Source: an uncultured Chloroflexia bacterium (lineage in GTDB: Bacteria > Chloroflexota > Limnocylindria > Limnocylindrales > CSP1-4). From it: a stretch of 64,000 nt of DNA. The first letter of the stretch is position 1; each line of letters opens with the position of its first letter. The stretch spans positions 1,002,052 to 1,066,051 of the forward strand of contig CAWABV010000008.1 in the NCBI GenBank assembly GCA_963780375.1, written 5' to 3'. A program made the translations under genes and the position numbers. The notes beneath the pieces were generated by a model that worked only from the letters and a program-made list of their open reading frames with translations, was not told the DNA's origin and made no database searches. Below are positions 5,882 to 25,977 of this stretch, piece after piece.

Positions 5882-7267
5882 ATGGACGCCAAGCAGGTCT
5901 GGCGAGCTGCCCTGGGTGAACTCCAGGTGTCCCTATCGCCCGCCAACTACGAGACGTGGCTGCGCGACACGCGTCTCGTCGACGTCGACGAGCAACGCTT
6001 CCGGATCGCCGTCCCGAACGGCTTCGCCAAGGACTGGCTCGAGACCCGCTACCGCTCGCTGATCAGCCAGACCCTTGCCCGCATCGTCGGCTACAGCGTC
6101 CAGGTCGAGTTCGTGGTCGGTCCGGCACCGGCGGAGCCGATCGTCGACGGTGGCGAGAGCCCACAGCCGGCGGCGTCGACGAACGGTCTCAACGGCCAGG
6201 AGGTCCGCGTCGAGGCGACCCGGATCGGCGGCGAGGGCGGCGCGACCAACCTGAACCCGCGCTACACGTTCGCGAACTTCATCGTCGGTTCGGCGAACCG
6301 CCTCGGGCACGCCGCGAGCCTATCGGTCGCCGAGCGCCCGGGCCATGCCTACAACCCGCTGTTCCTGTACGGCGGCGTGGGGCTGGGCAAGACGCACCTG
6401 ATGCACGCCATCGGCAACCAGGTCATCGCCAGGTTCCCGCGCAAGCGCGTGGTCTACGCGACCTCCGAGAAGTTCACGAACGAGTTCATCACCAGCATCC
6501 AGCAGGGCAAGATCGACGAGTTCCGGTCGCGCTACCGCCGGATCGACCTCCTCCTCATCGATGACATCCAGTTCATCGCCGACAAGGAGCGGACCCAGGA
6601 GGAGTTCTTCCACACGTTCAATGCGATCCATGAGGACGGCAAGCAGATCGTCCTCTCCAGCGACCGGCCGCCGAAGGCGATCCTGACCCTCGAGGAACGG
6701 CTTCGGTCGAGGTTCGAGTGGGGTCTGATCGCCGACCTGACGTCGCCGGATCTCGAGACGCGCATCGCGATCCTCCGCGCCAAAGCCGAGGAGGGCGCGG
6801 TCCCGATCACATCCGACGTGGTCGAGTTCATCGCGCGCAAGGTCGTCTCGAACGTCCGCGAGCTCGAGGGCGCGCTGAATCGCATCGTCGCCTTCGCGAG
6901 CATGGGCGCGACGCCGATCAGCATCGAGCTCGCCCAGGCCGTCCTCTCGAACGTCCTCTACAACCCGAAGAAGCGGCAGGTAACCCCGGAGCGGATCGCC
7001 AAGGCGGTGTCCGACTACTACAGCGTCCCGATGGAGGTGCTCCAGGGCCAGAAGCGCGACAAGGCGATCGTCATGCCACGCCAGATCGCGATGTTCCTGA
7101 TGCGCGAGGAGACCGACGTCTCCCTGCTCCGGATCGGTGCCGAGCTCGGCGGGCGCGACCATTCGACGGTCCTCCACGCCTGCGACAAGATCTCGCGCGA
7201 GGTCGCCAACAACGACGAGCTGCGGCGCGAGATCGCTGCCGTCCGCGAGCTGATCTACGCCGAGTAG
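5882..7267 (+). CDS. dnaA: chromosomal replication initiator DnaA
   Basis: The N-terminus MDAKQVWRAALGELQVSLSPANYETWL matches DnaA. The AAA+ Walker A reads GGVGLGKTHLMHAIGNQ. The C-terminal DnaA-box binding domain reads ...DHSTVLHACDKISRE.... Confidence 0.95.
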   Translation: MDAKQVWRAALGELQVSLSPANYETWLRDTRLVDVDEQRFRIAVPNGFAKDWLETRYRSLISQTLARIVGYSVQVEFVVGPAPAEPIVDGGESPQPAASTNGLNGQEVRVEATRIGGEGGATNLNPRYTFANFIVGSANRLGHAASLSVAERPGHAYNPLFLYGGVGLGKTHLMHAIGNQVIARFPRKRVVYATSEKFTNEFITSIQQGKIDEFRSRYRRIDLLLIDDIQFIADKERTQEEFFHTFNAIHEDGKQIVLSSDRPPKAILTLEERLRSRFEWGLIADLTSPDLETRIAILRAKAEEGAVPITSDVVEFIARKVVSNVRELEGALNRIVAFASMGATPISIELAQAVLSNVLYNPKKRQVTPERIAKAVSDYYSVPMEVLQGQKRDKAIVMPRQIAMFLMREETDVSLLRIGAELGGRDHSTVLHACDKISREVANNDELRREIAAVRELIYAE

Positions 7268-7637: not shown

Positions 7638-8756
7638 GTGAAGCTCTCGGTCATGCAGGAGAACCTGGCGCGTGGCTTGTCCATCGTCAGCCGGGCCGTA
7701 TCGAGTCGCAGCACCCTGCCGGTGCTCGCGAACGTCCTGCTCAAGACCGAGGACGCCGGGCTCAAGCTCACCGCGACCAATCTCGAGATCGGGATCACCT
7801 ATTGGGTGCCCGGCAAGGTCGACGAGGATGGCGCGACGACGGTGCCGGCCCGTCTCCTGACCGACCTCGTCAACTCCCTGCCCGCCGGTGACAAGGTCGA
7901 GCTCGAAGTGACCGGTGGCGACACCCTCAACGTCAAGGCCGGCCGCTTCCAGACGCACATCAAGGGCATCAGCGACGAGGAGTTCCCGGCGATCCAGACC
8001 GCGGGCGACCGACCCACGACCCGCATCGCCCAGAACGTCCTTCGGCGCGCCCTCGCCGAGACCGCGTTCGCGGCCGCCAGTGACGAGGCCCGGCCCATCC
8101 TGACCGGCGTCCTGGCGCGGTTCGAAGGCGATCAGCTGACTTTGGCGGCCGCCGACAACTACCGGATCGCCGTGAAGACCGTGCCGATCCTCGATCCGGT
8201 GCCGGAGACCAGCGTCGTCATCCCGGCGCGTGCGCTCAACGAGCTCGCGCGCGTCCTCGCCGACATCGATGACCCGGTCGAGGTCGTCCTGGCCGGTGCG
8301 CGCAACCAGGTGCTCTTCCATCTCGACGGGATCGACCTCGTCAGCCGCCTGATCGACGGCCAGTTCCCGAACTACCAGCAGGTCATGCCCCAGGCGCACG
8401 CGACGCGGGCGGTGCTCGATCGCGAGGAGCTCCTCCGGGCCGTTCGCCCGGCAGCGCTGATCGCCCACGAGTCGGCCAACATCGTGAAGCTCCAGATCGG
8501 CGGCGACGGCGATCCCGGCGTGACGGTCAGCGCGAATGCCGAGGTCGGCGACCACGTCGGGCAGGTCGAGGCGGCGGTCGAGGGCGACGGCACGACCATC
8601 GCCTTCAATGCCCGCTACCTGGCCGACGTCCTGACGAACGTCTCGGCCGACCAGTTCGTGCTGGAGCTCAACGGGCCGCTGTCCCCGGGCGTGTTCAAGC
8701 CGGTCGGCGACGACCGCTACGTGCACGTCGTCATGCCGGTCCGGACGACGTCCTAG
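7638..8756 (+). CDS. dnaN: DNA polymerase III beta sliding clamp
   Basis: GTG start. The protein MKLSVMQENLARGLSIVSRAVSSRSTLPVLANVLLKTEDAGLKLTATNLEIGITYWV shows the three-domain beta-clamp pattern. Confidence 0.95.
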   Translation: MKLSVMQENLARGLSIVSRAVSSRSTLPVLANVLLKTEDAGLKLTATNLEIGITYWVPGKVDEDGATTVPARLLTDLVNSLPAGDKVELEVTGGDTLNVKAGRFQTHIKGISDEEFPAIQTAGDRPTTRIAQNVLRRALAETAFAAASDEARPILTGVLARFEGDQLTLAAADNYRIAVKTVPILDPVPETSVVIPARALNELARVLADIDDPVEVVLAGARNQVLFHLDGIDLVSRLIDGQFPNYQQVMPQAHATRAVLDREELLRAVRPAALIAHESANIVKLQIGGDGDPGVTVSANAEVGDHVGQVEAAVEGDGTTIAFNARYLADVLTNVSADQFVLELNGPLSPGVFKPVGDDRYVHVVMPVRTTS

Positions 8757-8757
8757 C

Positions 8758-9924
8758 ATCGCGTCGCTCGCTTCGCTCTCGGCCCTCGACCTGCGCGGAT
8801 ACGCGTCGGTCGACGCGACCTTCGAGCCCGGCGCCCACCTGATCTGGGGACCCAACGCGGCCGGCAAGACGAGTCTCCTCGAAGCCATCGCGTTGCTCGG
8901 CTGGGGCCGATCCCACCGCACGAGCTCCGACGGCGAGCTGATCCGCTGGGGACGGGATCTCGCCCGAGTCGAGGGTCGGGTGGGGAACGACGTGCTCGAG
9001 GTCGCGATCCAGCGCTCGGGCGCCGACGGATCCGGTGGGCGGAAGCGGATCCGTGTGAACGGCGTGGGCCGACGGGCCGGCGCTCTCGGGCGTTACCTGC
9101 GGGTCGTCCTCTTCGCGCCCGAGGAGATGCTGCTCGTCATCGGCTCGCCATCGCTCCGGCGTGCGGCGATCGACGCCCTCGCCGTGGCGCGGTTCCCGAC
9201 GTATGCCGACGACCTCGGGACATACGGGCGGACCCTCCAGCAGCGGAACAGCTTGCTTCGGGCGATCCGCGAGGAGCAGGCGACACGCGACCAATTGCAC
9301 TTCTGGGACGGAACGTTCCTCGATACCGGCGGTCGAGTCGTCGCGGCACGGCTGGAGCTGATCGACGAACTGGCGCGACCACTCGCCGCGGCCCACAGCG
9401 AGATCGCCCCGGATGAGGCCGCCGCAGGGGCACTCAACTTGCGCTACGTCACGAATGCGCCGCAGCTCCCTGGGGAGAGCCCTCGGGACGCGCTCGCCAG
9501 GCGCCTCGTCGATACCGCCGAGAAGGAGATCTGGAACGGGTCGACGGTCATCGGACCGCACCGCGACGACCTGGCGTTCGATCTCAACGGACGCGACCTG
9601 GCCGGGTTCGCCTCCCGCGGCCAACAGCGGACCGCGATCCTCGCATTCAAGCTGGCCGAGCTCGACCTGCTGACCGCGCTCGACGGCCACCCGCCACTCC
9701 TGCTCCTCGACGACGTGTTCAGCGAGCTCGACCCGGAACGACGGTCGCATCTCGTCCGGCGGATCGCGGATCTGCCGCAGGCGTTCGTGACGACGACCAC
9801 GCCCGACGACCTGGACCCGGGCCTCCTCGCCATCGCCCACGGCTGGGAGGTCCGGCCGGGCGAGGCGGGCGCGGACCTGCGGCCGGCCCAGGCTCGAGCG
9901 CACCGCTCGGCGAGCCCGGCCTGA
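8758..9924 (+). CDS. recF: DNA replication/repair protein RecF (start codon unresolved)
   Basis: The in-frame translation from 8758 is IASLASLSALDLRGYASVDATFEPGAHLIWGPNAAGKTSLLEAIALLGWGRS... (Walker A). The C-terminal signature reads LLLLDDVFSELDPERRSHLV. The track ORF (TTG 8893) would delete the P-loop, so the true start is upstream. Confidence 0.8.
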   Translation: MASLASLSALDLRGYASVDATFEPGAHLIWGPNAAGKTSLLEAIALLGWGRSHRTSSDGELIRWGRDLARVEGRVGNDVLEVAIQRSGADGSGGRKRIRVNGVGRRAGALGRYLRVVLFAPEEMLLVIGSPSLRRAAIDALAVARFPTYADDLGTYGRTLQQRNSLLRAIREEQATRDQLHFWDGTFLDTGGRVVAARLELIDELARPLAAAHSEIAPDEAAAGALNLRYVTNAPQLPGESPRDALARRLVDTAEKEIWNGSTVIGPHRDDLAFDLNGRDLAGFASRGQQRTAILAFKLAELDLLTALDGHPPLLLLDDVFSELDPERRSHLVRRIADLPQAFVTTTTPDDLDPGLLAIAHGWEVRPGEAGADLRPAQARAHRSASPA

Positions 9925-9935
9925 CCGTTGGCGGC

Positions 9936-10268
9936 ATGAATGCGCCACGCCGACGCCCCATGCGCCGCATCGGCGACCTCATCCCCGACGCGGCCCGGGC
10001 CCTCGGCCTTGAGGACGAGCTGCGCCTCGCGCGGGCGATGACGACGTTCGAGGCGATCGTCGCCGAGCGTGTCCCGGCCGCGGCCGGTGCGTGCCGCGTC
10101 GTCCGGATCGAGGGTTTCGCGATCGACGTCGAGGCGGACGCGCCCATCGTGGCCCAGGAGCTCCGACTGCGCTCCGGGGAACTGCTGGCGGCGTTCGCGG
10201 CTGCCCCAGGAGGCATCGGGATCCGGGACCTTCGTGTCCACGTTCGTCGCGGAGGACCCCGCGTATAA
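9936..10268 (+). CDS. dciA: DUF721/DciA-family protein (predicted replicative-helicase operator in the recF-downstream slot)
   Basis: A small basic protein immediately 3' of recF. MRRIGDLIPDAARALGLEDELRLARAMTTFEAIVAERV...CRVVRIEGFAIDVEADAPIVAQELRLRSGELL fits the DUF721 pattern and the conserved dnaA-dnaN-recF-DUF721 synteny. Confidence 0.6.
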   Translation: MNAPRRRPMRRIGDLIPDAARALGLEDELRLARAMTTFEAIVAERVPAAAGACRVVRIEGFAIDVEADAPIVAQELRLRSGELLAAFAAAPGGIGIRDLRVHVRRGGPRV

Positions 10269-10364
10269 TCCCTCGGACCTGCCTGCCATCTCGGGGCGAA
10301 CGTCACGCCGATCCGGCCAGGGATCGTCCCGTCGCCTGACCAAACCCTATCGAGAGAGGCCCGC

Positions 10365-12608
10365 ATGGCCGCCCGTCTCCAACTGAAGCTAGGGATCGTC
10401 GCCGAGCACGACCGTCTCGACGACTCGCCGGACACGCTGGTCGTCGTCGAACCCAGTGTCGGGTCCGTCGCGCGATCGAAGGGCAACCTGTATCTGCTGG
10501 TCACCTCGCGGACCAGCTCGCGCCACGCCCTGGAGGCGACGCGGCTCGCCGCCGAGACGATCCGGAACGAGTACTACTACGACGAATCGGCGGGTATCCG
10601 TGTCTGCCTGCAGAAGGCCATCGCGACGGCGAACAAGCGGCTCCTGCACCAGGCCGACCGGCTCGCGCTGAAGTCGCCGGAGGGCAACGGTCCGATCGGC
10701 GTGGGCGTCGGGGTCGTGCGTGGCAACGAGATGTACGTCGCCACGGTCGGTCCGGCGGAGGCCTACCTGATCCGCCAGGCACGCCTCTCCACGCTGCCGG
10801 ATCCCCACCGCGAGCGCGGGCTACCGTCGAACGGCCTCGAACCCGAGGTCTGGCGCGGCGAGGTGACCGTCGGCGACTCGCTCGTGCTGATCTCGCCGAA
10901 CATCGTCGCCCGGCTCGGTGCGGACGAGCTCAAGGACGCGATGGTCACGCTCCATCCGCAGTCGGCGATGGAGCACCTCCACCAGCGCTTCAGGGCCGCC
11001 GACGGCTCGGGTAGCGACGGAGCGATCGCGTTCGAGGCGACCGAGGTGGCACCCACCACCCGCGGCCGCTCCCTCGTCCCGGTCAAGCCGGCCGAGCCGC
11101 TCGCCGGTGCGCCCGATCGCTCGCCGATCCCCCTTGCCGATAACGTGCAGGCGGCCGGCGCCGCCGTCGCATCCGCTGCCGACAGCGCCCGGACGGTGGC
11201 CGGGACGGCCTTCGAGCGGACCGTCGCGCGTCTCCATGACCTGCTGCCGCGGCGGCGACCAGCCTATCGCCGGGTCACCCCGCTCGCCTCACGCCGCGAG
11301 ACCCAACGCCGCGCGGCGATCGCCGTCATCGCCCTGCTCGTCGTCGTGGGCAGTCTGGCGATGTCGGTCTGGGCGTTCGGTGGCCGGACGCCGCAGGGCG
11401 CCATCAGCTCGATCAACGCGGGCCAGGCTGCGCTCGACAAGGCGGAGGAGAACCTCGACCTCGTGTCCGGTCCAGGCATCGACCTCGTGAGCGACGATCG
11501 CGACGAGGCGCTCCGGCTGCTCACCGAAGCCTACGGCGAGCTCGACAAGGCGGAGGATGCCAGCGTCAGCTCGCGGGTCATCGATCCGGTCCGGACGAAG
11601 GTCGTCGCGCTCCTGGACCGCGCCTATGGCGTCGTGGACGTGGCCTCGACGCCGCTGTTCCGGTTCAAGCCCGCCCAAGGGGCGGCCGCGTTCGACCTCC
11701 GCACGCTCGTCCGGGGTTACGACGATGCCCCGTATGTGATCGACCGGGCGACCAGGGCGGTCTACCGCGTCGATCTGAAGCGCAAGCGGGCGACCAACAT
11801 CGCCCGAAACGGCAAGGCGATCGGCAGCACGCGGATGGCCACGCCGAGGCTCCTCGCCGTCGGTGGTCGCGATCTGTTGATCCTCGACAGTAAGAACGCG
11901 GTCTGGAAGTGGCGGGCCTCGAACGACGCCGGCAAGGGGACGACCAACCGCGTCCAGGTCAACGGCGCCAGCCAGTGGGGCAACGACATCCTGTCGATCG
12001 GCACGTATCTGCGCGACTCGAGCCGCGGGCTCTACAACCTGTACGTGGTCGACCCCTCGGAGCAGCAGATCCGGGCCTATCCGCCGTCGGCCGACGGGGG
12101 CGGCTTCCCGGCCAAGTCCTCCGCGTGGCTGGCCACGGCCCGCCCGTTGGAGCAGATGACCGGCATGTACATCGACGGCGACATCTACGTCACCGAGAAC
12201 GGCGTCCTCGACCGCTACACCTCGGGCAAGAGCGACGCCTGGGAACCGGGCTCGCCCGGCGACGAACTACTCCGACCGACGACCAGCGAGGTCATCGTCG
12301 CCGGGGCCGGCGCCCGCAACGAGGGTCACGTGTACACGTTCGACCGCTCGAACGACCGGCTCCTTGCGTACGACAAGCGCACAGGCGACTTCGTCGCGCA
12401 GTACCGACTCAAGGATGGCGAAGGCTGGGCGGATCTCCGGGCGATGTACATCATCCCGGGCGTCGAGGACCAGCCCGACCGGCTCATCTGGCTGTCCAAG
12501 GATGCCGTTAACCAGGCCGTGCTCCAGGCCGCTCCCGAGACCGCTGGCGCGTCCCCGTCGCCGTCCGGTGGCGCCAGCGGCTCGCCGTCGACCGCGCCCA
12601 GCCCCTGA
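10365..12608 (+). CDS. PstP-like bitopic membrane protein: cytoplasmic degenerate PP2C-like domain, one TM helix, extracytoplasmic beta-propeller-like repeat domain
   Basis: The N-terminal region aligns to PP2C motifs, but the metal-binding residues are replaced: LYLLVTSRTSS at the DGMGG position and GVGVGVVRGNEMYVATVGPAEAYLIR at the GTT...VANVGDSRAYLLR position. A TM helix AAIAVIALLVVVGSLAMSVWAF follows. The C-terminal repeats read AVYRVD.., LYNLYVVD.., MYIDGDIYVTENGVLDRY, HVYTFDRSNDRLLAYD. Confidence 0.5.
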   Translation: MAARLQLKLGIVAEHDRLDDSPDTLVVVEPSVGSVARSKGNLYLLVTSRTSSRHALEATRLAAETIRNEYYYDESAGIRVCLQKAIATANKRLLHQADRLALKSPEGNGPIGVGVGVVRGNEMYVATVGPAEAYLIRQARLSTLPDPHRERGLPSNGLEPEVWRGEVTVGDSLVLISPNIVARLGADELKDAMVTLHPQSAMEHLHQRFRAADGSGSDGAIAFEATEVAPTTRGRSLVPVKPAEPLAGAPDRSPIPLADNVQAAGAAVASAADSARTVAGTAFERTVARLHDLLPRRRPAYRRVTPLASRRETQRRAAIAVIALLVVVGSLAMSVWAFGGRTPQGAISSINAGQAALDKAEENLDLVSGPGIDLVSDDRDEALRLLTEAYGELDKAEDASVSSRVIDPVRTKVVALLDRAYGVVDVASTPLFRFKPAQGAAAFDLRTLVRGYDDAPYVIDRATRAVYRVDLKRKRATNIARNGKAIGSTRMATPRLLAVGGRDLLILDSKNAVWKWRASNDAGKGTTNRVQVNGASQWGNDILSIGTYLRDSSRGLYNLYVVDPSEQQIRAYPPSADGGGFPAKSSAWLATARPLEQMTGMYIDGDIYVTENGVLDRYTSGKSDAWEPGSPGDELLRPTTSEVIVAGAGARNEGHVYTFDRSNDRLLAYDKRTGDFVAQYRLKDGEGWADLRAMYIIPGVEDQPDRLIWLSKDAVNQAVLQAAPETAGASPSPSGGASGSPSTAPSP

Positions 12609-12623
12609 CCGGGGAGACTCCCC

Positions 12624-13346
12624 GTGATCCCGCTCCACGACGCGAACCCGACCCGGCGGACACCGGTCATCACCCTCGCGATCGTGGCCGCGTGCGCGCT
12701 CGTCTACGGCTACCAGCTGCTGCTGTTGTTGGCGAACGGCGGCGAGGCGGCGCTCGCCGCCTTCATCACGCGCTGGGGCGTCGTCCCCGCCGAGCTCGTC
12801 GCGGCGTTCCGGGCGGGCGCGGTGGCCTCGATGGAGTCGCTGACACTCATCACGAGCCAGTTCTTGCACGGGAGCCTGGTCCATATCGGCGGGAACATGC
12901 TGTTCCTGTGGATCTTCGGCAACAACATCGAGGACCGGTTCGGCCGCTTCCGATTCCTGGCGTTCTATCTCGTCGGCGGCATCGTGGCGGGCCTTACGCA
13001 GGTCGCCATCGACCCGACATCGACCATCCCCACGATCGGTGCGTCCGGTGCTATCGCGGCGGTGCTCGGCGCGTATCTGGTGCTGTTCCCCCGCGCTCGC
13101 GTCACGACGGCTGTCTTCCTGATCTTCTTCTACCAGCTCATCGAGGTCCCGGCCGTTATCGTGCTGGGGTTCTGGTTCGTGCTCCAGCTGTTCGACGGAC
13201 TCGGCTCGCTCGGCGCGATGGGCGCGGCGACGACCGGAGGGGTCGCATTCTTCGCCCACATCGGCGGATTCGTGTTCGGGGCGGCCGTCGCGCTGCTCTA
13301 CCGGCTCAGCACGAGCGGGGGTCGGCTCGGTCGCACCGTGGGATAA
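12624..13346 (+). CDS. rhomboid-family intramembrane serine protease
   Basis: Six TM segments. The catalytic Ser lies in GASGAIAAVLGAY and the His in FFAHIGGFVFG. The conserved HGSLVHIGGNMLFLWIFG is also present. Confidence 0.85.
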   Translation: MIPLHDANPTRRTPVITLAIVAACALVYGYQLLLLLANGGEAALAAFITRWGVVPAELVAAFRAGAVASMESLTLITSQFLHGSLVHIGGNMLFLWIFGNNIEDRFGRFRFLAFYLVGGIVAGLTQVAIDPTSTIPTIGASGAIAAVLGAYLVLFPRARVTTAVFLIFFYQLIEVPAVIVLGFWFVLQLFDGLGSLGAMGAATTGGVAFFAHIGGFVFGAAVALLYRLSTSGGRLGRTVG

Positions 13347-13354
13347 TCGGGCCG

Positions 13355-13909
13355 ATGGACGACGGCTTGATCGAGATGGTCGTGGAAAGCGTCCGCGTCC
13401 ACATGCTCTCGAGCCGCCATGTCGTGATCCTCAAGGAAACGGGTCGCGAGCGGTACCTCCCCATCTGGATCGGGCCGTGGGAGGCGAGCGCCATCGCGAT
13501 GCGCCTCCAGGGGCTGACGCCCGAACGCCCGCTCACCCACGACCTGTTCGCCAGCACGCTCGAAGCGGTCGATGCTCGCGTGGCGCGCGTGATCATCTCG
13601 GACCTCGCTGACGAGACCTTCCACGCGCGGCTGTTCGTGGAGCGGGATGGCCACGTCGGCGAGATCGACGCTCGACCGTCGGATGCGCTCGCGCTGGCCG
13701 TCCGGGTCGGAGCGCCGATCTTCGCCGTGCCGTCGGTGCTCGATCAGGCCGGACTCGGCGCCGACGGCGGGATGGGCGAGGAGGGCGAGGGCGAGGGCAG
13801 CACCCTCGAGATGACCGGCGAGCAGATCGTCGACCCGCGGCTCGACGTCTTCCGGGAGTTCGTGAACTCGCTCGACGTCGATCCCGACGCCGAGGACCGC
13901 CAGAGCTGA
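13355..13909 (+). CDS. bifunctional nuclease (BFN/DUF151) family protein
   Basis: ATG at 13355. The protein reads MVVESVRVHMLSSRHVVILKETGRERYLPIWIGPWEASAIAMRLQGLTPERPLTHDLFAS...ARPSDALALAVRVGAPIFA with an acidic C-terminal tail. Confidence 0.7.
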   Translation: MDDGLIEMVVESVRVHMLSSRHVVILKETGRERYLPIWIGPWEASAIAMRLQGLTPERPLTHDLFASTLEAVDARVARVIISDLADETFHARLFVERDGHVGEIDARPSDALALAVRVGAPIFAVPSVLDQAGLGADGGMGEEGEGEGSTLEMTGEQIVDPRLDVFREFVNSLDVDPDAEDRQS

Positions 13910-13936: not shown

Positions 13937-14728
13937 TCAGCCGCCGGCGTCGATGATCGGCCGGCCGCGGCGCATCGCCCGCGACCGATTCGCCCACATC
14001 GCGAGCCGCGTGCGCCAGAAGTCGCGAACGGCCCGAAAGACCACCTGGAGTTTCGCGCCAGTGGGCGACCCGGCTGTGCGTGGATAGTGGGGGACGCCCA
14101 CCTCGACCACCGACCGACCGTCGGCCCGTAGCCGGATCAGGAGCTCCGCGGAGAAGAAGGCTCCGTCGGACTCGACCCGGACGCCCGCCAGCGCCTCGCG
14201 CCGGAACAGCTTGGAGGCGCAGTCGACATCGGTGACCGTGAGACCGAAGAAGAGCCGGTTGGCCAGCCGGTACGCACGGGCATACAGCGTCCGAACGAGG
14301 GGATCGGCGCGCTTGATCCGATACCCGACCACGACGTCGGGCTGATCCGCGCCGGCCAGCCGCTCGGTCAGGCGGCCGAGATCCTCGACACGGAACTGGC
14401 GATCGCCGTCGGTGAACGCGACGAGCTCGTAGCGTGCCGCGCCGAAGCCCGACCGGAGGGCGGCGCCGTAGCCGAGGTTGGTCGGATGGTGGACCGCCCG
14501 GACGACGCCCGGATGTGTAGCCGTCAGCTGGTCGGCGAGGGCCCGTGTCCGATCGCGCGAGCCGTCATTGACGGCGATGATCTCGAACGTCTCGGCGATG
14601 ACCGGCAGGCTCTCGAGCGCCTCCTCGACGAGGCCCTCGATATTCGCCTCCTCGTTATGCGCCGGGAAGAAGAACGAGAGGCGCGCGACGCGTCCGGGTC
14701 CCGTCGGTGCCGCCACGGTGGCCGTCAC
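13937..14728 (-). CDS. GT2 polyprenol-phosphate glycosyltransferase (dolichol/polyprenol-phosphate mannose/glucose synthase-like)
   Basis: LSFFFPAHNEEANIEGLVEEA...IIAVNDGSRDRT...NLGYGAALRSGF...FTDGDRQF is the GT-A DXD/ED architecture typical of Ppm1/DPM1/GtrB. Confidence 0.85.
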   Translation of the reverse strand: MTATVAAPTGPGRVARLSFFFPAHNEEANIEGLVEEALESLPVIAETFEIIAVNDGSRDRTRALADQLTATHPGVVRAVHHPTNLGYGAALRSGFGAARYELVAFTDGDRQFRVEDLGRLTERLAGADQPDVVVGYRIKRADPLVRTLYARAYRLANRLFFGLTVTDVDCASKLFRREALAGVRVESDGAFFSAELLIRLRADGRSVVEVGVPHYPRTAGSPTGAKLQVVFRAVRDFWRTRLAMWANRSRAMRRGRPIIDAGG

Positions 14729-16227
14729 TCGCCGGCCTCACGACTACGGATGACGCGACCGAGCAGGCTCGTATCGAAGCCGTCGATCTGCTCGACGACG
14801 TAGCGCTCGGCGATGCCGCGGATCTCCGATGGCTCGATGCGGATCACATAGACCGGCCGGGTCGGCAGGAATCGGTCGATCACTTGGTAGACGTCTCCCA
14901 GGTCGAGGTCGAGGCGGGTACGGTCGTCGATGATAAAGAGGTCGCGCCGTCGACCCTCGATCACTTGCGCATACCAGAGTGGCGTCGAGTAGCTCCACCA
15001 GCTCACGATGACGGCATTCGGCTCCATACGCGCGAGCGTCTGGTCCAGCCAGCGGGGCGCGGAGAGATCGCCGCTCCGGTCGACGACCCGGTAGCGATCC
15101 CCGAGCTCGATCGTGGTCGGGACCAGGAGGACGATGGCGAGGACGACCACGACCACCGGTTGCATCCGGCGGCGGCCCTCGTCGTCGAAGCCCCTCCCGG
15201 CCAGCCGGGCGATCCCCTCCGCGAGGGTCGCGAGCCACGTCCATCCCATCAGGACGGGAACGACGTAATAGCGGTCGATCATGGCGTTGACGTAGGACGC
15301 CGCGAAGAAGCAGGTGAGCGCGACCGCCGAACCGGTCAGCAGCGCATACCGCGGCTGCCGGAGCACGGTGACCGCGAACGCGAAGGGCAGGAGGACGGCC
15401 AAAGGCCCGAACGCGTCGATCGTGCGGAGCGCGAGGTCACCAGCCTTGAACGCGAGGTCGTCGAACGGGCCGAGAAGGGCTCCGCGGAATTGCTCCGCGA
15501 GCGCGATGTACCAGAAGCCATCCCATGTGTCGGGACGGCCGTATATCAACGGCGCAGGGAATGGCCCGGCCCGGAGCGGCAGCTCGAGGTAGACGAGGGC
15601 AGTGGTGAGGACGGCGGCGACCAGACAGCCGACGACGAGGCGCGGCCGCCAGAGCATCTCGGGATCGACCACTGCGACATAGAGGAGGATCGGCGGCAGG
15701 AAGAGCAGGGTCAGCGAGTGGTTGCCGGCCGCGAGCCCGAATACGACCGCCGCCGCCATGAGGGTCCGGTCCCGTCGCCCTTCCTCCCAGGCCACCAGGA
15801 GTCGCAGCAGGACGGCGCTCAGTGCGAGGTGCAGGGCGTGCGCCTCCGCCTGGGTACCGACCTTCCAGACGATGCCCGTAAGCGCGAGGCCGAGCCCCGC
15901 CATGACCCCGAGAAGGGCCGATCTCGTCAGCGCCCGGACGAGGTCGACCGTGACCGCGGCGGCCGCCGCTACGCACAGGCCCGCGAACAGGTTCATGCGG
16001 AACGCCGGGTCGCCGAACGGGCTCAGGAGGATGTTCGCGACCCACGCGAGCAGGACGTAGGTCGGGAAGCCGGTCGGATGGGCTGTGCCGAGCACCGGCG
16101 CGACGACCTGCAGCTCGGCGGTATCCCAGTACCCGATGCCCGGCAACATGGCGAGCCGCTCGGCGATGAACGCCACGATGCCGACCGCCAACGGGGGCAG
16201 CCACCGCCCGGCCGCCCCGCTCACCAT
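14725..16227 (-). CDS. DUF2723-family polytopic membrane glycosyltransferase (GT-C fold, TMEM260-like)
   Basis: The complement ATG at 16227 sits 1 nt after the stop of the upstream GT-C gene. The signature reads GIGYWDTAELQVVAPVLGTAHPTGFPTYVLLAW, with many TM helices. Confidence 0.65.
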   Translation of the reverse strand: MVSGAAGRWLPPLAVGIVAFIAERLAMLPGIGYWDTAELQVVAPVLGTAHPTGFPTYVLLAWVANILLSPFGDPAFRMNLFAGLCVAAAAAVTVDLVRALTRSALLGVMAGLGLALTGIVWKVGTQAEAHALHLALSAVLLRLLVAWEEGRRDRTLMAAAVVFGLAAGNHSLTLLFLPPILLYVAVVDPEMLWRPRLVVGCLVAAVLTTALVYLELPLRAGPFPAPLIYGRPDTWDGFWYIALAEQFRGALLGPFDDLAFKAGDLALRTIDAFGPLAVLLPFAFAVTVLRQPRYALLTGSAVALTCFFAASYVNAMIDRYYVVPVLMGWTWLATLAEGIARLAGRGFDDEGRRRMQPVVVVVLAIVLLVPTTIELGDRYRVVDRSGDLSAPRWLDQTLARMEPNAVIVSWWSYSTPLWYAQVIEGRRRDLFIIDDRTRLDLDLGDVYQVIDRFLPTRPVYVIRIEPSEIRGIAERYVVEQIDGFDTSLLGRVIRSREAGE

Positions 16228-17624
16228 CCGAGGATGCGACCCCAGATGACGCCCCACGCGTTGACCATCACGGACAGGACGATGAGGCCCATCGCCAGCG
16301 GCATCGCCCAAGCCGCTCGTCGCGCTCGATCGACGAGCCAGGAGAAGCCTATGGCTACGAGGACCAGCGCGAACGGGAGGACATCGTTACTGAACCGATA
16401 GCCGAACTGGACCCAACCCTGGCTGAAGTGCATGAGGTTCGCCACGGAGACCAGCGCGATCGCGAGCAGGGCGGCGACGACGATGCGGCGCCTCCTGCGG
16501 TCGAACCAGGCCGGGATCGCGAGCAGGAGGGCCGGTGTCGTCAGCAGCACGCTCATGCCTGTGTCTCGAGGCAGCGCCAGCGGGCAGTCGGGGTCGAAGA
16601 GCCCGCGCGTCCCACCGGGCGCCGCGCACAGCGGCCGATCGATCGTGCCGAGCGTGTCCTGGAAGCGCTCCGGCATGAGCGTGGGCGTGGACAGCAGCAT
16701 GATCGCGAGGTTCTGGGGCAGGTACCTGGGGTCCTCCGCGGTCCAGTCCGGGTGGTAGCCGAGACGGGTGTACGCCCGGGACTCGAGCTGGTAGAGGTGG
16801 TCGTAGGCCGGGTGGAAGACGTGGCCGGTCGAGACGACGTTGTAGATCACCAGCGCCGCCACGGGGATCGCCGCGCCGAGCGCGACGGCGACGCCGCGCC
16901 GTCGCCAGTCCCGGCCCGGCGCAACGAGGACGAAGAACGGCAGGGCGAGGATCACGGTGAGCCGCGCCGTCGCCGCCACGCCGATGAGGAAGCCGTTCAT
17001 GACCGCGCTCGGGAGGGTCCGGCGCCCCGCTCCACCCGAGGCTCCATCGCCGCCCCGCGCCGCAGCGTCGCCCGGGGCTCCCTCACCGCCCAGCGCCAGG
17101 CCGACCGCCAGCATCGTCAGCCCGACCGCCACGATGTGCGCCTGGTACCAGGTCGTCGTGTTCTGCGCCGCGTACCAGAAGGCGGTCCCGAAGGCGAAGA
17201 CCACCGTCGTACCGGCACGGACGACGATCGAGACGCCGAGCCGGCCGATCATCCACCAGCACAGCGCGACGTCGACGGCCGCGAAGATCGTGAAGATCAA
17301 CTGGTCATCCGCCTGGAGACCGAAGGCGGCCACGAACGGGATCACCACGAGGGCCGGCAGCGGCGGGAAGGGGATCAGGCCGCGCTCGCTGCCGGCCACT
17401 CGTCCGATGGGCAGGACGTCCTGGAAGAGGTAGTTGCCGAATCGTTCTGCCGTGTTCAGTACTGGATAGCGGATGCCGGCCTGACCCTCGAGGAACGCGG
17501 CGGCCTGCCACACGAAGTGGTCGTAGTAGCGCGGGACGAAGGTGAGTCGAAAGACCGCGAACGCGGCTACCGCGAGCGCGATCCCCGCCAGCGGGACGAG
17601 GACCGACATCGCCCGCGACGTCAC
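16221..17624 (-). CDS. GT-C superfamily membrane glycosyltransferase (ArnT/PMT_2/GT87-like)
   Basis: Polytopic, 467 aa, with the first-loop acidic motif ...NYLFQDVLPIG... It forms a 4-nt-overlap chain with the downstream DUF2723 and GT2 genes. Confidence 0.6.
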   Translation of the reverse strand: MTSRAMSVLVPLAGIALAVAAFAVFRLTFVPRYYDHFVWQAAAFLEGQAGIRYPVLNTAERFGNYLFQDVLPIGRVAGSERGLIPFPPLPALVVIPFVAAFGLQADDQLIFTIFAAVDVALCWWMIGRLGVSIVVRAGTTVVFAFGTAFWYAAQNTTTWYQAHIVAVGLTMLAVGLALGGEGAPGDAAARGGDGASGGAGRRTLPSAVMNGFLIGVAATARLTVILALPFFVLVAPGRDWRRRGVAVALGAAIPVAALVIYNVVSTGHVFHPAYDHLYQLESRAYTRLGYHPDWTAEDPRYLPQNLAIMLLSTPTLMPERFQDTLGTIDRPLCAAPGGTRGLFDPDCPLALPRDTGMSVLLTTPALLLAIPAWFDRRRRRIVVAALLAIALVSVANLMHFSQGWVQFGYRFSNDVLPFALVLVAIGFSWLVDRARRAAWAMPLAMGLIVLSVMVNAWGVIWGRILGW

Positions 17625-17650
17625 TACTCGGGGCCGGGGGTCGTCTCGGG

Positions 17651-20600
17651 GTGCCTGTGCTACGCTCAGATCAACCTTCCACGCTCGTGCAGGAGCCGTT
17701 CTACCCGGTGACTGGCCCCGATCCCGGTGCGTACGAGCGAGGCACGGGAGCGCCGCCTCGGTCGACCGGGATCCAAGGAGCCGTCGGCGTCGTCCTGATC
17801 GCCCTCGCTCTCGGACTCGCCATCCGGCTCACCCTTTTATACCTGCTCCCCGGTTCGGGCTTCGGGCCCGACCTGGCGTCGTTCCGTTTCTGGGCGAACG
17901 ACCTGGCGACGAACGGCCTGCACGGTTTCTACGAGCGTGACTTCTTCCACGACTACACGCCCGGTTACCTGTATGTCCTGTGGCTGGTCGGCACGGTCGG
18001 CAAGGCCATCGGCGGCATCGGTGACCTGATCAAGATCCCGCCGATCATCGCCGACGTCGGCATCGCCTATCTCGCCTGGTCGATGCTCCGCGAGCTCGGC
18101 GTCCGCGACCGCTTGGCTGTGCTGACCGCGCTGGTCGTGATGCTGAACCCGATCTTCTGGTTCGACAACGTGATCTGGGGCCAGGTCGACTCGTTCGGCG
18201 TGCTGTTCCTGCTGCTCGGCCTGCGCTCGCTCTGGCGCGACCAGCCGGAACGCGCAGCGATCTTCGGCGTCATCGCCGCCGTGATCAAACCGCAGCTCGG
18301 TATCCTGCTGCCGGTGATCGCGGTGGTCACCATCCGCCGTGCATTGCGACCGTCGCCGAAGGACCCGGCGTCGATCTCGGCGGTCGACCCGATCCGGCGA
18401 CTCGAGGCACAGACCGGCCACCCGATCCGGATCGTCACCACCGTCCTCGCGGGCTACATCACCGCGCTCATCCTCTGCCTGCCGTTCGGATTGACGGTGC
18501 TGCAGGTCATCCCGAACCCGCCCTTCGTCGCCTCCGGCCTGCTCGAGCAGATCGCCCTCGCCGGCGGTGGTTACCCGTACCTGACCGTCAACGCCTACAA
18601 CACCTGGGCACTCGTCCCGAGTGATCTCGGGATCAGCCTCGCGGCGTCTAGCCAGTGGGTCTGTGACGCCTCGACCACGCCGGCCGACCTGTGCGGAACC
18701 GGGGTCGTCCAGTTCGGGGCGGTCCCGGCGGTCGTCGTCGGCGCCGTCCTGCTGGTCGTGGCCATCCTCACCGTCCTGTGGGCGATCTGGCGGAACCCGG
18801 ACCGCCTCACGATCACCGTCGGGCTGGCCATCATCGCTCTGGCCTTCTTCATGGCCCCGACCCGCGTCCACGAGCGCTACGGCTTCCCGTTCTTCGCTAT
18901 CGGGGCAATGCTCTTCGCGATCTCGCCGCGCTGGCGGGTCGCGTATGTGGTCCTCAGCATCGCGACGTTCGCGAACATGTATGTCGTCCCGACGACGATC
19001 TATCCCCCGACCGATCCGACCACCAACCCGTTACGCGACTGGTTCGCCATCGGCCCCGAGATCCGCTCGCAGGCCGGCGTCACGATCGTCGCGGTCATGC
19101 ACACCGGGGCCTCGATATGGGCATGGCTCCAGCTGCGCCGCTCGGCACGGGAACGGCTCGAGGAGGAGCTCTACACGGCCTCGCGCGAGTCGCTACCCGA
19201 TCGCGTGCCGGGCCGCGCCGTGGCACCCGGCGTCGCGCCAGGAGCCGTCGGCCTGTCGGTGGCCGCATCGACGGCACAGCCGACCACGCTGCCGACCTGG
19301 TCCGAGCCGGCGCGGTTCGAGGAGGTCGGCGTGACCGGCTGGATCTCGGACCGGTTGCGGGCCGCACCCTTCCGCGCGGATCGCAGTCGCTCACTGGCGA
19401 GCGAGGGCGGCGGTCGCTTCGACCGTCTCGACGCGTGGCTGCTCGTCGTGCTGATCCTGGCCACGCTGGGGATCCGACTGTTCCGCCTGGCGGAGCCATA
19501 CCAGATGCACTTCGACGAGGTCTACCACGCGCGGACCGCGACGGAGTTCCTCCAGGACTGGCGCTATGGCGAGTCGCATGTCATCTACGAGTGGACCCAT
19601 CCGCATCTCGCCAAGTACGCGATGGCGGCCGGACTCGTGCTGTGGGGCGGGGACCACGTCCAGGCGACGGCCGAGCTCGGCACGCCGGTCCGCGCTGTCG
19701 CGATCGAGCCACGCCGGGAGGACGGGACGGCACGGGCCGGCGAGCGGTTGCACATCGCCACGGGCGAAGAGATCCGGACCGAGGATCTCCGGACACGCCG
19801 CACGATCGCGGAGACGCCGGCACCGGGAGTCGGCGCGCTCACCGTCGACTCGACCCTGACCCGCCTCGTCCTGGGCGCGGACGACGGCACGATCTCGACC
19901 ATCGACCTCACGGGTATCGGCATCGACGGTACCGACAGCACCCCGGTCCGGTTGGCGACCGTCCCGCATCCGGTCGACCATCTCCTGGTCGCCGACGACG
20001 GCACGATCGTCGCCGCCTCCGACATCGACGTCACGACCATCGATGGCACCTCCGGCGACATCCTCGGCCACGCCGAGTTCGACGGCGTCGCCGACCTGGC
20101 CCCGGGCGGCTCGGGCCCGGTGCTGCAGGGCGACCCGAGCGCTATCGACGACCCGACCGCGGTCGCCGAGACACTCGCCTCGCTCATCGGCGGCGACCCG
20201 CTCGACTATGAGTCGAGGATCACGAGGGCGGAGCCCGGGGCGTCGGTCCTGTTCGGTAGCCCGGGGAGCGGTGAGACGCGGACGTCGGTCGACGACGCCA
20301 TCACCGACGGTCGGCTGCCTGGGATCGAGATCGTCGACCTGCCGCGGATCGCGGTGGCGACGTCCGAAGGCGTCTCCTTCATCGATCCGGCGAGCGCGGC
20401 CACGACGTCGTCGGTGCCGCTCGACGGTGGCGCGCACGGGTTGGCGTTCGTGACGGGGATCGACGACACCCAGTTGTACGTCTCGAGCGGATCCCGTGAG
20501 GACCCGACGTACCACGTGCTCAAAGTGAGCGGCGATAAGGCGGCCAACGGTCCGATCGACCAAGGGAGCCACCCGCTGCCCGGTCTCGGCTCGCAGGTCG

Positions 20601-23044
20601 CCTACGACGAGGCCACCATGCACATCCACATCCTGGGCCTCGCGCCGCCGGAAGAAACGGCGGGATCCGGTGACCGCTGGACCGTGTACGTGATCCAGCC
20701 GCGCGCCGACGACCCCGCCGTGTATGCCGACGCGGCCCTCCCGCCCGACTTCACGCCGGTCGACATGGCGATGGACGTCGAGCCGCAGTACCAGACCGAC
20801 GACCGTGAAGACCTGCTGGTGTTCGACGGCGATGGCACCGTCGCCTCCATCGATACCGGCTCGCACGCCTTCGCGTGGCGCTTGCCGGGCGTCCTGGCCG
20901 GCGTCCTGATGGCCGCCAGCCTGTACGTCCTGGCCCGGATCCTGTTCGCGCGACGGAGCGTGGCCGTCGCCGTCGCCGCGTTCGTGATCCTCGACGGGAT
21001 GTTCTTCGTCCAGTCGCGCATCGGGATGAACGATGTCTACGTCGGCCTGTTCATCGTCGCGGCGTACACGGTCGTCGCCGCCATCTGGACGGGCTGGTGG
21101 CGTGGCCGCTTCGCGTTCTGGATCGCGATGCCCATCATCGGCCTGCTCCTCGGGCTGGCCTTGGCCTCGAAGTGGGTCGCGGCCTACGCGATCGGCGCGC
21201 TCATCCTGTTGCTGCTCATCCGCAGCGCCCTCGGGCGCATCGTGGCGATCCTCGGACTCATCGCGATCACCGGCGCGCTCGGCTACCTCGCGATGGCCGG
21301 CCAGTCGTTCGGCAACCTGCCGTTCCTCGTGATCATGATCGGACTGACGATCCTGGCCGTGGTCGTCGCGGTCTTCCATCCGATCGCCTGGACCGACGAG
21401 GAGATGTGGCTGGCGTTGCTGGCCCCGGCTGCCGCAGGTGCCGCCCTGTTCTTCGGGACTCTGGCGCTCGGCGAGCTGAACACGGAGATCGTCATCGGGC
21501 CCCTGTCGGTGACGCCGTTGCTGGCGGCCATCGCCACCTCGCTCGGCTCGGTCGTCGTCTATGCCGCGTTCCGTGTCGGCGGGTCACTCGGCTACGGACC
21601 GCTCGCGCCGCCGATCCGACCGGGCGATCCGGAGTGGGTCCTCGACCCACCCGGCGATGCACCGACCGGCTGGCTGCGACCCGGCTGGGCGTTCGGCATC
21701 CCGATCGTGTGGGCGACGATCTGCGTGCTCGCCGTCCCAGTCGGCGTATATGTCGTGAGTTACCTGCCATGGGCGGCGATAGAGAACCATCAGTTGTGGC
21801 CGGGCTACCCGGCCGGCCACAGCGGACAGACGCTCGTCGAGCTCACCCGCCAGATGTACGACTACCACAACGGGCTGACCGCGCCGCATCCCGCGTCGTC
21901 GCCATGGTGGGCGTTCCCGTTCGATCTCAAGCCCGTGTGGTTCTACCAGGAAGGCTTCGCCGGATCGACCAGCGCCGCGATCTACGACTCCGGGAACCTG
22001 GTGATCTGGTGGCTCGGGATCGCCGCTCTGATCTTCGTCTCGATCATGGCCTACCGCCGGCGGTCGCCAGCGCTCGCGCTCATCGCGATCGGCTTCGCCG
22101 GTCAGTGGGTGCCGTGGGCGCGGATCGACCGGGCAGCCTTCCAGTATCACTACTACACGGCGCTGCCGTTCCTGATCCTCGCCCTGGCATACCTCGTGGC
22201 GGAGCTGTGGCACGGGGCGTCACGCCGGACCTGGATGTGGATCCGCATCGCCGCCGCAGCGGCCCTCATCGGACCGGCCGTGATGTGGCTGTTCTCGCGC
22301 CCGCTGTGCGTCCTGGTGGGCGTCACGATCGTCAATCCCGGATCGCAAGCCTGTCCGGCCGTCATCCCGGACTTCGTCCTCACGATCCGGACCCTGGCGC
22401 TGCTCACGCTCCTCGTCGGTGGCGGGATCCTCCTCTGGCTGTGGCTCGCGCGCATGCAGCAGCGGGAGGGCGGTCTGGGCGACGCGCGGTCGAGCCTGCC
22501 CCTGCTCGGGGTGGCGTTCGGCATCGGCGTAGCCTCCCTGCTCCCGGAAACGCCACTCCTGACGTGGCGCGGGATCCCGGTCGAGCCGGTCGCGCTGCTC
22601 GTCCTCCTGCCACTGCTCTATCTCGCCGGGCAGGTGGTGGCGGCCCGCGACGCTCGCCGGTTCGTGGTCGGCATCGGCGTGGCCGTGACGGCGTGGTTCG
22701 TGCTCTGGTACCCGAACCTCTCGGCCTTGCCGTTGCCGTCGACCGTGGTCAACGCCTACCAGGGCTTCCTGCCGACCTACCTGTATGCCTTCCAGTTCCC
22801 CGTGAACACCGCTGCACGGCCGGCGACACCGTTGCTCAGCCCGGTCCCGATCGCGCTGACCATCGCCCTCGGCCTGACCTGCCTCGTGGTCGCCTACTCG
22901 GCCTCGGTCTGGCGGCTGGCACTAGCCGAGTCTCGAGCGAATGCGGCCTCGGGCTCTGGCCCGTCCGGTCCGGGTGCTGCTGCCGGCTCCTCGGCGATGG
23001 ACGGTGGGGCAGAGGGCCTGGCCCGGACCGGTGGGGGCGCCTGA
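17651..23044 (+). CDS. giant (1797 aa) fused membrane glycosyltransferase: N-terminal DUF2029/GT87 (PimE-like) domain, then a PMT-family (GT39-like) domain carrying a ~400-aa beta-rich extracytoplasmic insertion
   Basis: N-terminal domain: FGPDLASFRFWANDLATNGLHGFYERDFFHDYTPGYLYVLW, which is PimE/GT87-like. Second domain: LGIRLFRLAEPYQMHFDEVYHARTATEFLQDWRYGESHVIYEWTHPHLAKY, the PMT DE-loop. A soluble repeat-rich insert (GTISTIDLTG..., VADDGTIVAASDIDVTTIDG...) lies between them. More than 25 predicted TM helices. Confidence 0.7.
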   Translation: MPVLRSDQPSTLVQEPFYPVTGPDPGAYERGTGAPPRSTGIQGAVGVVLIALALGLAIRLTLLYLLPGSGFGPDLASFRFWANDLATNGLHGFYERDFFHDYTPGYLYVLWLVGTVGKAIGGIGDLIKIPPIIADVGIAYLAWSMLRELGVRDRLAVLTALVVMLNPIFWFDNVIWGQVDSFGVLFLLLGLRSLWRDQPERAAIFGVIAAVIKPQLGILLPVIAVVTIRRALRPSPKDPASISAVDPIRRLEAQTGHPIRIVTTVLAGYITALILCLPFGLTVLQVIPNPPFVASGLLEQIALAGGGYPYLTVNAYNTWALVPSDLGISLAASSQWVCDASTTPADLCGTGVVQFGAVPAVVVGAVLLVVAILTVLWAIWRNPDRLTITVGLAIIALAFFMAPTRVHERYGFPFFAIGAMLFAISPRWRVAYVVLSIATFANMYVVPTTIYPPTDPTTNPLRDWFAIGPEIRSQAGVTIVAVMHTGASIWAWLQLRRSARERLEEELYTASRESLPDRVPGRAVAPGVAPGAVGLSVAASTAQPTTLPTWSEPARFEEVGVTGWISDRLRAAPFRADRSRSLASEGGGRFDRLDAWLLVVLILATLGIRLFRLAEPYQMHFDEVYHARTATEFLQDWRYGESHVIYEWTHPHLAKYAMAAGLVLWGGDHVQATAELGTPVRAVAIEPRREDGTARAGERLHIATGEEIRTEDLRTRRTIAETPAPGVGALTVDSTLTRLVLGADDGTISTIDLTGIGIDGTDSTPVRLATVPHPVDHLLVADDGTIVAASDIDVTTIDGTSGDILGHAEFDGVADLAPGGSGPVLQGDPSAIDDPTAVAETLASLIGGDPLDYESRITRAEPGASVLFGSPGSGETRTSVDDAITDGRLPGIEIVDLPRIAVATSEGVSFIDPASAATTSSVPLDGGAHGLAFVTGIDDTQLYVSSGSREDPTYHVLKVSGDKAANGPIDQGSHPLPGLGSQVAYDEATMHIHILGLAPPEETAGSGDRWTVYVIQPRADDPAVYADAALPPDFTPVDMAMDVEPQYQTDDREDLLVFDGDGTVASIDTGSHAFAWRLPGVLAGVLMAASLYVLARILFARRSVAVAVAAFVILDGMFFVQSRIGMNDVYVGLFIVAAYTVVAAIWTGWWRGRFAFWIAMPIIGLLLGLALASKWVAAYAIGALILLLLIRSALGRIVAILGLIAITGALGYLAMAGQSFGNLPFLVIMIGLTILAVVVAVFHPIAWTDEEMWLALLAPAAAGAALFFGTLALGELNTEIVIGPLSVTPLLAAIATSLGSVVVYAAFRVGGSLGYGPLAPPIRPGDPEWVLDPPGDAPTGWLRPGWAFGIPIVWATICVLAVPVGVYVVSYLPWAAIENHQLWPGYPAGHSGQTLVELTRQMYDYHNGLTAPHPASSPWWAFPFDLKPVWFYQEGFAGSTSAAIYDSGNLVIWWLGIAALIFVSIMAYRRRSPALALIAIGFAGQWVPWARIDRAAFQYHYYTALPFLILALAYLVAELWHGASRRTWMWIRIAAAAALIGPAVMWLFSRPLCVLVGVTIVNPGSQACPAVIPDFVLTIRTLALLTLLVGGGILLWLWLARMQQREGGLGDARSSLPLLGVAFGIGVASLLPETPLLTWRGIPVEPVALLVLLPLLYLAGQVVAARDARRFVVGIGVAVTAWFVLWYPNLSALPLPSTVVNAYQGFLPTYLYAFQFPVNTAARPATPLLSPVPIALTIALGLTCLVVAYSASVWRLALAESRANAASGSGPSGPGAAAGSSAMDGGAEGLARTGGGA

Positions 23045-25975: not shown

Positions 25976-25977
25976 GA

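Follow-up and report, generated by a model that had tools for sequence, protein, structure and literature searches.

The window analysed here is a 64-kb stretch of DNA (64,000 nucleotides, nt) from an uncultured member of the Limnocylindria (Chloroflexota), in which the replication-initiation genes dnaA, dnaN, recF and dciA lie in a row on the forward strand. After dciA comes an open reading frame (ORF) of 747 amino acids (aa), referred to below as X, whose product joins a PP2C-fold domain to a single transmembrane (TM) helix and a beta-propeller. The earlier note on this DNA had described the gene row, the 747-aa ORF and a rhomboid gene next to it, and the coordinates and the Pfam and TIGR matches bear out this description. 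The genes of the region are the following:

5882-7267, + strand: dnaA (Pfam Bac_DnaA E 9.2e-74, plus DnaA_N and Bac_DnaA_C)
7638-8756, + strand: dnaN, the beta clamp (Pfam DNA_pol3_beta domains 1-3)
about 8758-9924, + strand: recF (TIGR00611 E 3.2e-66 for 8893-9924)
9936-10268, + strand: dciA, DUF721 (PF05258 E 8.5e-9)
10264-10364, + strand: conserved dciA-X intergenic leader (79-species alignment)
10365-12608, + strand: X, 747 aa, a putative transmembrane PP2C-fold pseudophosphatase with propeller ectodomain
12624-13346, + strand: rhomboid intramembrane serine protease gene (PF01694 E 1.3e-34)
13352-13909, + strand: bifunctional nuclease (BFN) domain gene (PF02577 E 8.2e-40)

The structure of X was predicted with AlphaFold2 from 40 homologues, and the model has a mean predicted local distance difference test score (pLDDT) of 71.7. 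Together with the sequence, it divides the protein into the following parts:

10365-11054, + strand: predicted cytoplasmic PP2C-fold domain, aa ~1-230
11055-11294, + strand: disordered cytoplasmic linker, aa 231-310 (pLDDT <50)
11295-11375, + strand: single TM helix, aa 311-337, predicted N-in/C-out (AlphaFold2 helix)
11376-11624, + strand: extracytoplasmic helical stalk, aa 338-420, three helices (AlphaFold2)
11625-12530, + strand: six-bladed NHL-type beta-propeller, aa 421-722
12531-12608, + strand: Pro/Ser/Ala-rich C-terminal tail, aa 723-747, with the stop codon (sequence)

The N-terminal part is modelled as an alpha/beta domain (aa ~40-240, pLDDT 55-76), the stalk as helices at 343-367, 379-398 and 403-420 (pLDDT 86-94), and the propeller as six four-stranded blades (aa 423-720, pLDDT ~90); the C-terminal tail is predicted to be disordered. 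Nine arginines occur in the 21 residues N-terminal of the TM helix, and two basic residues follow it. Because of the positive-inside rule, this Arg-rich N-side points to an N-in topology, in which the N-terminal domain would be cytoplasmic and the propeller outside. The single TM helix and the YVxD-type repeats, which form the propeller, had both been recognised in the earlier note. The linker carries an Arg-rich juxtamembrane stretch and, at aa 244-260 (nt 11094-11144), the conserved SPIPLAD-type linear motif EPLAGAPDRSPIPLADN. This motif hardly varies among 40 close homologues and can still be made out in most family members of ~30% identity; it is a candidate docking motif without known counterpart.

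The fold of the cytoplasmic head was assessed by both structure and sequence comparison. In Foldseek searches against the PDB, the N-terminal domain matches tPphA (5d2u/2j86) with E 1.4e-8, probability 1.0 and a target TM-score of 0.57-0.60, and it also matches PppA (6jkv). Searches with the single protein against Pfam, NCBIfam and the PDB return nothing significant: no Pfam family is found at E <=0.01, the Pfam PP2C family (PF00481) scores 11.6 bits against a cut-off of 20.3, and the NCBIfam Stp1 model (NF033484) gives a weak match (E 5.8e-4) with 19.4 bits against a cut-off of 230. By sequence, the PP2C relationship is reached only via a family profile, which was built from 20 members that are 26-81% identical. 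Against PDB sequences, this profile matches tPphA with E 1.8e-5 (profile positions 42-221 against residues 29-238, a span of nearly the entire PP2C domain), MspP with E 0.019 and PstP (2cm1) with E 0.04. Comparison of the same profile with tPphA residues 29-238 by hhalign gives a probability of 92.6% and E 4.7e-7. A spurious similarity was considered and rejected, since four independent methods are concordant. In both fold (PPM/PP2C) and ancestry, the cytoplasmic head is thus a relative of the PP2C phosphatases, as the earlier note had proposed for the N-terminal domain.

The active site of this head is degenerate. HMMER and hhalign give the same equivalences with tPphA at motif II and at the GDS and xSDG sites, and the altered motifs TSRTSS (aa 47-52) and VGPAEAY (aa 128-134) align to DGMGG(H) and VGDSRIY of the solved PP2C. 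At motif II, VTSRTSS (aa 46-52, nt 10500-10520) stands opposite ADGMGGH, with D34 replaced by T47 and G35 by S48. At the GDS site, VGPAEAY (nt 10746-10766) has P130 in place of D119, and at the xSDG site ISPNI (aa 176-180, nt 10890-10904), opposite CSDGL, has P178 in place of D193. In tPphA, D34 bridges the metals M1 and M2, D119 is the ligand of the third metal, and D193 is a ligand of M1 and M3. Both alignments also contain a gap of ~25 residues at the flap, most of which is gone. On these alignments, the three catalytic-metal aspartates are lost.

All 79 orthologues share T47, P130 and P178. Among members that are 24-55% identical, the T47 column contains T/S/A/Q/E/H, the P130 column P/D/Q/G/N/S/A/E/T/L and the P178 column P/S/K/H/R/E/G/A. 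The three catalytic columns are variable across the family and, therefore, no substitute ligand has been selected there. The pseudoenzyme pattern is ancestral to the whole family, and the head is probably a pseudophosphatase that has been retained for binding or scaffolding and not for catalysis.

The opposite possibility is that X is a catalytically active membrane Ser/Thr phosphatase of the PstP/Stp1 type, with a site that has diverged or with motifs that were misaligned. The PP2C fold and homology are in keeping with such an activity, and one NCBI record names the P0103 cluster, which is 73% identical to X, 'Stp1/IreP family PP2C-type Ser/Thr phosphatase'. The conserved residues D23 and D218 may also match two PP2C acidic ligands. 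D218, which is an aspartate in 78 of the 79 orthologues and lies two residues before the last strand, like D231 of tPphA, is by strand register probably the last catalytic aspartate, although this equivalence is ambiguous and the ungapped HMMER alignment puts G216 opposite D231. D23 may be the motif-I aspartate, according to a hand alignment of a low-confidence region. Both residues are well conserved though not invariant, and they may permit residual metal or phosphate binding, which counts against an entirely inert head. However, HMMER and hhalign agree that the aspartates of DGxGG, GDS and xSDG are T, P and P in X. Those columns vary in the family with no alternative ligand fixed, the flap is truncated, and the Stp1 and Pfam PP2C scores lie far under the family cut-offs. 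The name given to the P0103 cluster looks like over-annotation because of the low Stp1 score and because X and its relatives appear to have no catalytic aspartates; public records otherwise name the relatives of X 'hypothetical protein'. An active phosphatase is regarded as unlikely.

The degenerate domain is at the same time the best conserved part of the protein. Median Nei-Gojobori ratios of nonsynonymous to synonymous substitution (dN/dS) between X and 78 orthologues are 0.10 for the PP2C-like domain, 0.18 for the linker, 0.31 for the TM helix, 0.42 for the stalk, 0.44 for the propeller and 0.64 for the tail, which is the least conserved part; dS is 0.7-1.0, near saturation, and the values are comparative only, which takes some weight from them. 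In the PP2C-like domain, which is the most constrained part of X, 102 of the 230 columns are invariant over 79 species. A pseudogene or decaying gene is ruled out by this conservation. Residues Y70, Y72, D73, A76, G77, E122, G129, R137, W163, P198 and A201 are invariant down to 24% identity. Y70-G77 belong to a YYYD(E/L)SAG loop that connects the first helix with the second and has the form EYYYDESAGI (aa 69-78) in the window. R37, K39 and G40 are nearly invariant across the family, and LHPQSA is also among the family-conserved head residues. Judging from standard PP2C topology, most of the invariant head residues would lie in turns between strands, at the pole opposite the former catalytic cleft.

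The layout of X resembles that of PstP (Rv0018c) of Mycobacterium tuberculosis and of Stp1/IreP, in which a cytoplasmic N-terminal PP2C domain is likewise connected by a linker to one TM helix and, beyond it, an extracytoplasmic C-terminal part; the N-in orientation of the PP2C domain is that of PstP, and PstP is also encoded close to the chromosomal origin. In contrast to PstP and Stp1, X has lost three metal aspartates, has a truncated flap and scores far below the family thresholds. Its ectodomain consists of a stalk and a six-bladed propeller, whereas that of PstP is short and non-propeller. Furthermore, X does not have the pknA, pknB, rodA, pbpA, fhaA and fhaB neighbours of the PstP cluster. 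The earlier description of X as PstP-like therefore stands for the topology and fails for the catalytic residues, the type of ectodomain and the kinase/FHA context: X is PstP-like in topology only. Since the defining catalytic features of PPM phosphatases appear to fail, X is better kept out of the PP2C phosphatases in annotation. Another parallel is TAB1, a eukaryotic pseudophosphatase that has kept the PPM fold, has lost the catalytic metal ligands and is presumed to have a binding or adaptor role. Unlike TAB1, X is bacterial, membrane-anchored and fused to an extracellular sensor; the likeness is one of analogy, and no sequence relationship is claimed. A comparable bacterial transmembrane PP2C pseudophosphatase was not found in a full-text literature search, and the titles and abstracts of the Limnocylindria literature point to no work on the X protein.

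The structure check of the extracellular part supports the propeller that the earlier note had suspected from the repeats. The top Foldseek match of this six-bladed domain is Pizza6 (E 9e-9), a designed propeller derived from the PknD sensor, and by structure it is closest to NHL domains and to the sensor of PknD. The family profile matches NHL chains in the PDB with E ~1e-3, whereas aa 346-747 match no Pfam family at E <=10, NHL (PF01436) included. PknD (Rv0931c) likewise carries a six-bladed NHL-type propeller outside the membrane on a single-pass signalling protein. X differs from it in having a dead PP2C-fold domain in place of the Ser/Thr kinase, an extra three-helix stalk before the propeller, and no detectable Pfam NHL match.

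The ectodomain could instead be an enzyme, such as a propeller of the SGL/lactonase, phytase-like or lyase type, with the cytoplasmic domain acting only as an anchor or regulator. A faint match to SGL (PF08450) on the distant orthologue P0298 favours this idea. However, the six-bladed propellers that are enzymes (Drp35, DFPase, lactonases, phytase, PAL) rank below Pizza6, the best structural matches are non-enzymatic, and Pfam enzyme families are not matched. The conserved residues are blade-repeated Y-V-x-D and Arg positions, which look structural, and do not form a unique tunnel metal site. The ectodomain also evolves ~4x faster than the cytoplasmic head. An enzymatic ectodomain is, on balance, quite doubtful.

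Parts of the ectodomain recur in other proteins. In P0189/P0213 (Chloroflexota), the TM-stalk-propeller module follows an unrelated N-terminus of ~400 aa, and the hhalign match to X (E 4.5e-65) covers aa 303-720 only. P0190 has only the propeller (family-profile positions 441-734), which stands behind PD40 repeats and an anti-sigma-like zf-HC2 head; the zf-HC2 match scores just under the Pfam cut-off (20.2 bits versus 22.2). This pairing recalls membrane anti-sigma factors with propeller sensors, and, unlike P0190, X itself has no anti-sigma domain. The propeller portion also occurs in P0229, a protein with Kelch and LysM domains. The distribution of the ectodomain propeller is consistent with a portable extracytoplasmic sensing module.

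The family to which X belongs is large and taxonomically narrow. More than 1,890 relatives were found in databases; the best 120 are 71-92% identical and ~750 aa long and, where named, come from metagenome-assembled genomes (MAGs) of Candidatus Limnocylindrales or Chloroflexota. When each GTDB species was represented by a single genome, at least 598 of these genomes proved to encode a relative that has the family motif YYYD[EL]SAG[IV]. The best 80 species genomes all belong to the same lineage, except for two evidently mis-binned contigs. These contigs (L009, DATNFQ010000025.1; L026, DASPHN010000027.1) are labelled Patescibacteria/Saccharimonadales, contain the entire origin cluster of Limnocylindria, in which X is 86% and 70% identical, respectively, have a G+C content of 69-71%, and are almost certainly mis-binned. 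The family has so far been found only in Chloroflexota MAGs, where named mostly Limnocylindria.

Gene order was compared in 82 related loci, 1.03 Mb in total. The dciA gene precedes X in 80 loci, the rhomboid gene directly follows X in 77, and the BFN gene is found downstream in 80; the misses of dnaA, dnaN, recF and dciA are contig ends. In two long contigs with called-gene tables, the wider order is jag-yidC-yidD-rnpA, then dnaA-dnaN-recF-dciA-X-rhomboid-BFN-glycosyltransferase/PMT. Even the family members that have diverged furthest are encoded in this slot after dciA. They include P0299 (L083/L084), with X 29% identical and DnaA 73% identical to that of the window, and P0298, with X 24% identical overall and 36% over the N-terminal domain and DnaA 60% identical. 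At L085, the locus of a distant orthologue, the ends of dciA and X share 4 nt and the rhomboid gene is adjacent. Because this slot is conserved down to 24-29% identity, X is a vertically inherited, single-copy positional orthologue, and the layout is the norm of the lineage. In the window itself, no paralogue of X was found. The local synteny had been thought atypical, a view that the recurrence of the dciA-X-rhomboid-BFN order in 77-80 of the 82 loci contradicts.

The earlier note had further stated that gyrB and gyrA were replaced by X, on the premise of an actinobacterial origin region. That premise fails, as the closest homologues (<=92% identity) belong to MAGs of Chloroflexota/Candidatus Limnocylindria. 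Since the genome is of Limnocylindria, the actinobacterial dciA-gyrB-gyrA expectation is inapplicable. The observation behind the claim holds: GyrB/GyrA signature motifs are absent from every frame of the 64-kb window. Its large, gyrase-sized ORFs are nuo, oxidoreductase and PMT genes; the ORFs at 37699-39687 (662 aa) and 40626-43274 (882 aa) were considered as gyrase candidates and proved to be a NuoL-type antiporter subunit and an Fe-S flavoprotein, respectively. The lack of gyrase motifs would fit an insertion or rearrangement that displaced gyrB and gyrA from an ancestral dnaA-dnaN-recF-dciA-gyrB-gyrA cluster. However, 'replaced' is not the right word, as the order is standard in about 80 species genomes and extends to the orthologues of 24-29% identity with DnaA at 60-73%. 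The 82 related loci are also free of gyrase motifs, and the composition (66-74% G+C across the window) is unbroken around X. A recent gyrase displacement is contradicted by these data, and displacement in general is scarcely credible.

The neighbouring rhomboid gene raises a different possibility, namely that X is a substrate or regulatory partner of the protease, with intramembrane cleavage freeing the head into the cytoplasm or shedding the propeller. The rhomboid gene starts only 15 nt downstream of X, and the adjacency recurs in 77 of the 82 loci and in the distant L085. The rhomboid retains both catalytic motifs, GASG and AHIGG, and the single TM helix of X has Gly/Ser/Ala near its outer end. 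However, the rhomboid gene is truly missing in L040, L065 and L076, where BFN directly follows X, and also in L083/L084, so that at least four distinct loci keep the X-BFN adjacency without it. Because of these losses, the rhomboid appears to be dispensable for the function of X. The orientation is also unfavourable: those characterised rhomboids of bacteria whose first helix is N-in, as that of the window's rhomboid appears to be, cleave N-out substrates, whereas X is predicted to be N-in. A substrate relationship is improbable.

Several further features of the region were noted. The BFN gene begins 5 nt past the rhomboid gene, and the neighbours of X are dciA, rhomboid, BFN and glycosyltransferase/PMT genes. 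Further downstream (13937-28283), an envelope-glycosylation cluster resembles actinobacterial phosphatidylinositol mannoside (PIM) and protein-O-mannosylation genes. It contains GT2, GT87-like and GT4 genes, a 1797-aa PMT-family protein, two HtrB/PatA-like acyltransferases and myo-inositol-1-phosphate synthase. It can be speculated that the Pro/Ser-rich extracellular tail of X (aa 723-747) is a target of O-glycosylation.

The leader between dciA and X contains a perfect TATAAT at 10264-10269, which overlaps the dciA stop codon, ACCTGCCTGCCA at 10277-10288, and a Shine-Dalgarno sequence GAGAGAGG at 10352-10359 (GAGAGG). The 96-nt spacer is kept across 79 species, and the block ACCTGCCnGCCA is >=90% conserved. 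A known or structured RNA was considered for the leader and rejected, as it has no match in Rfam and its fold z-score is -0.5. The spacer is likely an internal promoter with a 5' untranslated region.

At the 5' end of recF (8754-8893), the frame is open from 2 nt past the dnaN stop. It includes the Walker A motif GPNAAGKT, and no in-frame ATG, GTG or TTG occurs upstream of 8893, including the part before Walker A. ATC at 8758 is kept in 16 related loci (L001, L003-L016 and L027), and in other clades a GTG or CTG stands two codons after this position. The start of recF is probably ATC 8758, probably coupled to the termination of dnaN, and recF seems to use non-canonical starts (ATC/CTG). Gene callers shorten the gene, for example to 283 aa in L001.

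Taken together, X is probably a lineage-specific transmembrane pseudophosphatase that functions as a sensor or scaffold and is encoded in single copy at a fixed, lineage-typical slot. In this proposal, the propeller would bind an envelope or extracellular ligand or partner, and the dead PP2C head and the linker motif would recruit or sequester cytoplasmic partners. By analogy with TAB1-like pseudophosphatases, these partners could plausibly be Ser/Thr-phosphorylated proteins or kinases, and X overall would act as a receptor-like transmembrane adaptor. Certain points speak against this proposal. The confidence of the N-terminal model is moderate (pLDDT 55-76, with residues 1-38 below 45) and its alignment is shallow. 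The function of X is inferred purely from its architecture, so that the partner, the ligand and the phosphorylation system are all putative, and a motif scan of the 64-kb window found no Ser/Thr kinase or FHA genes. A far bolder version, in which X is the founding receptor-type bacterial PP2C pseudophosphatase whose propeller reads the state of the envelope and whose head and SPIPLAD motif signal to the replication or cell-cycle machinery, is a long shot. If true, such envelope-to-replication signalling would explain why X is locked to dnaN-recF-dciA throughout the class and is sometimes translationally coupled.

Limnocylindria are abundant uncultured Chloroflexota of soil and freshwater, and their signalling and cell cycle are barely known. 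The origin-region gene order of Actinobacteria or Firmicutes is not transferable to other phyla. X is notable as a single-copy, strongly constrained gene that stands beside the genes for replication initiation in practically every related genome sampled, yet is unannotated. It represents a lineage-wide new family that combines a PP2C-fold pseudoenzyme with an NHL sensor, and its YYYDESAG loop and SPIPLAD linker motif offer handles for finding its partners.

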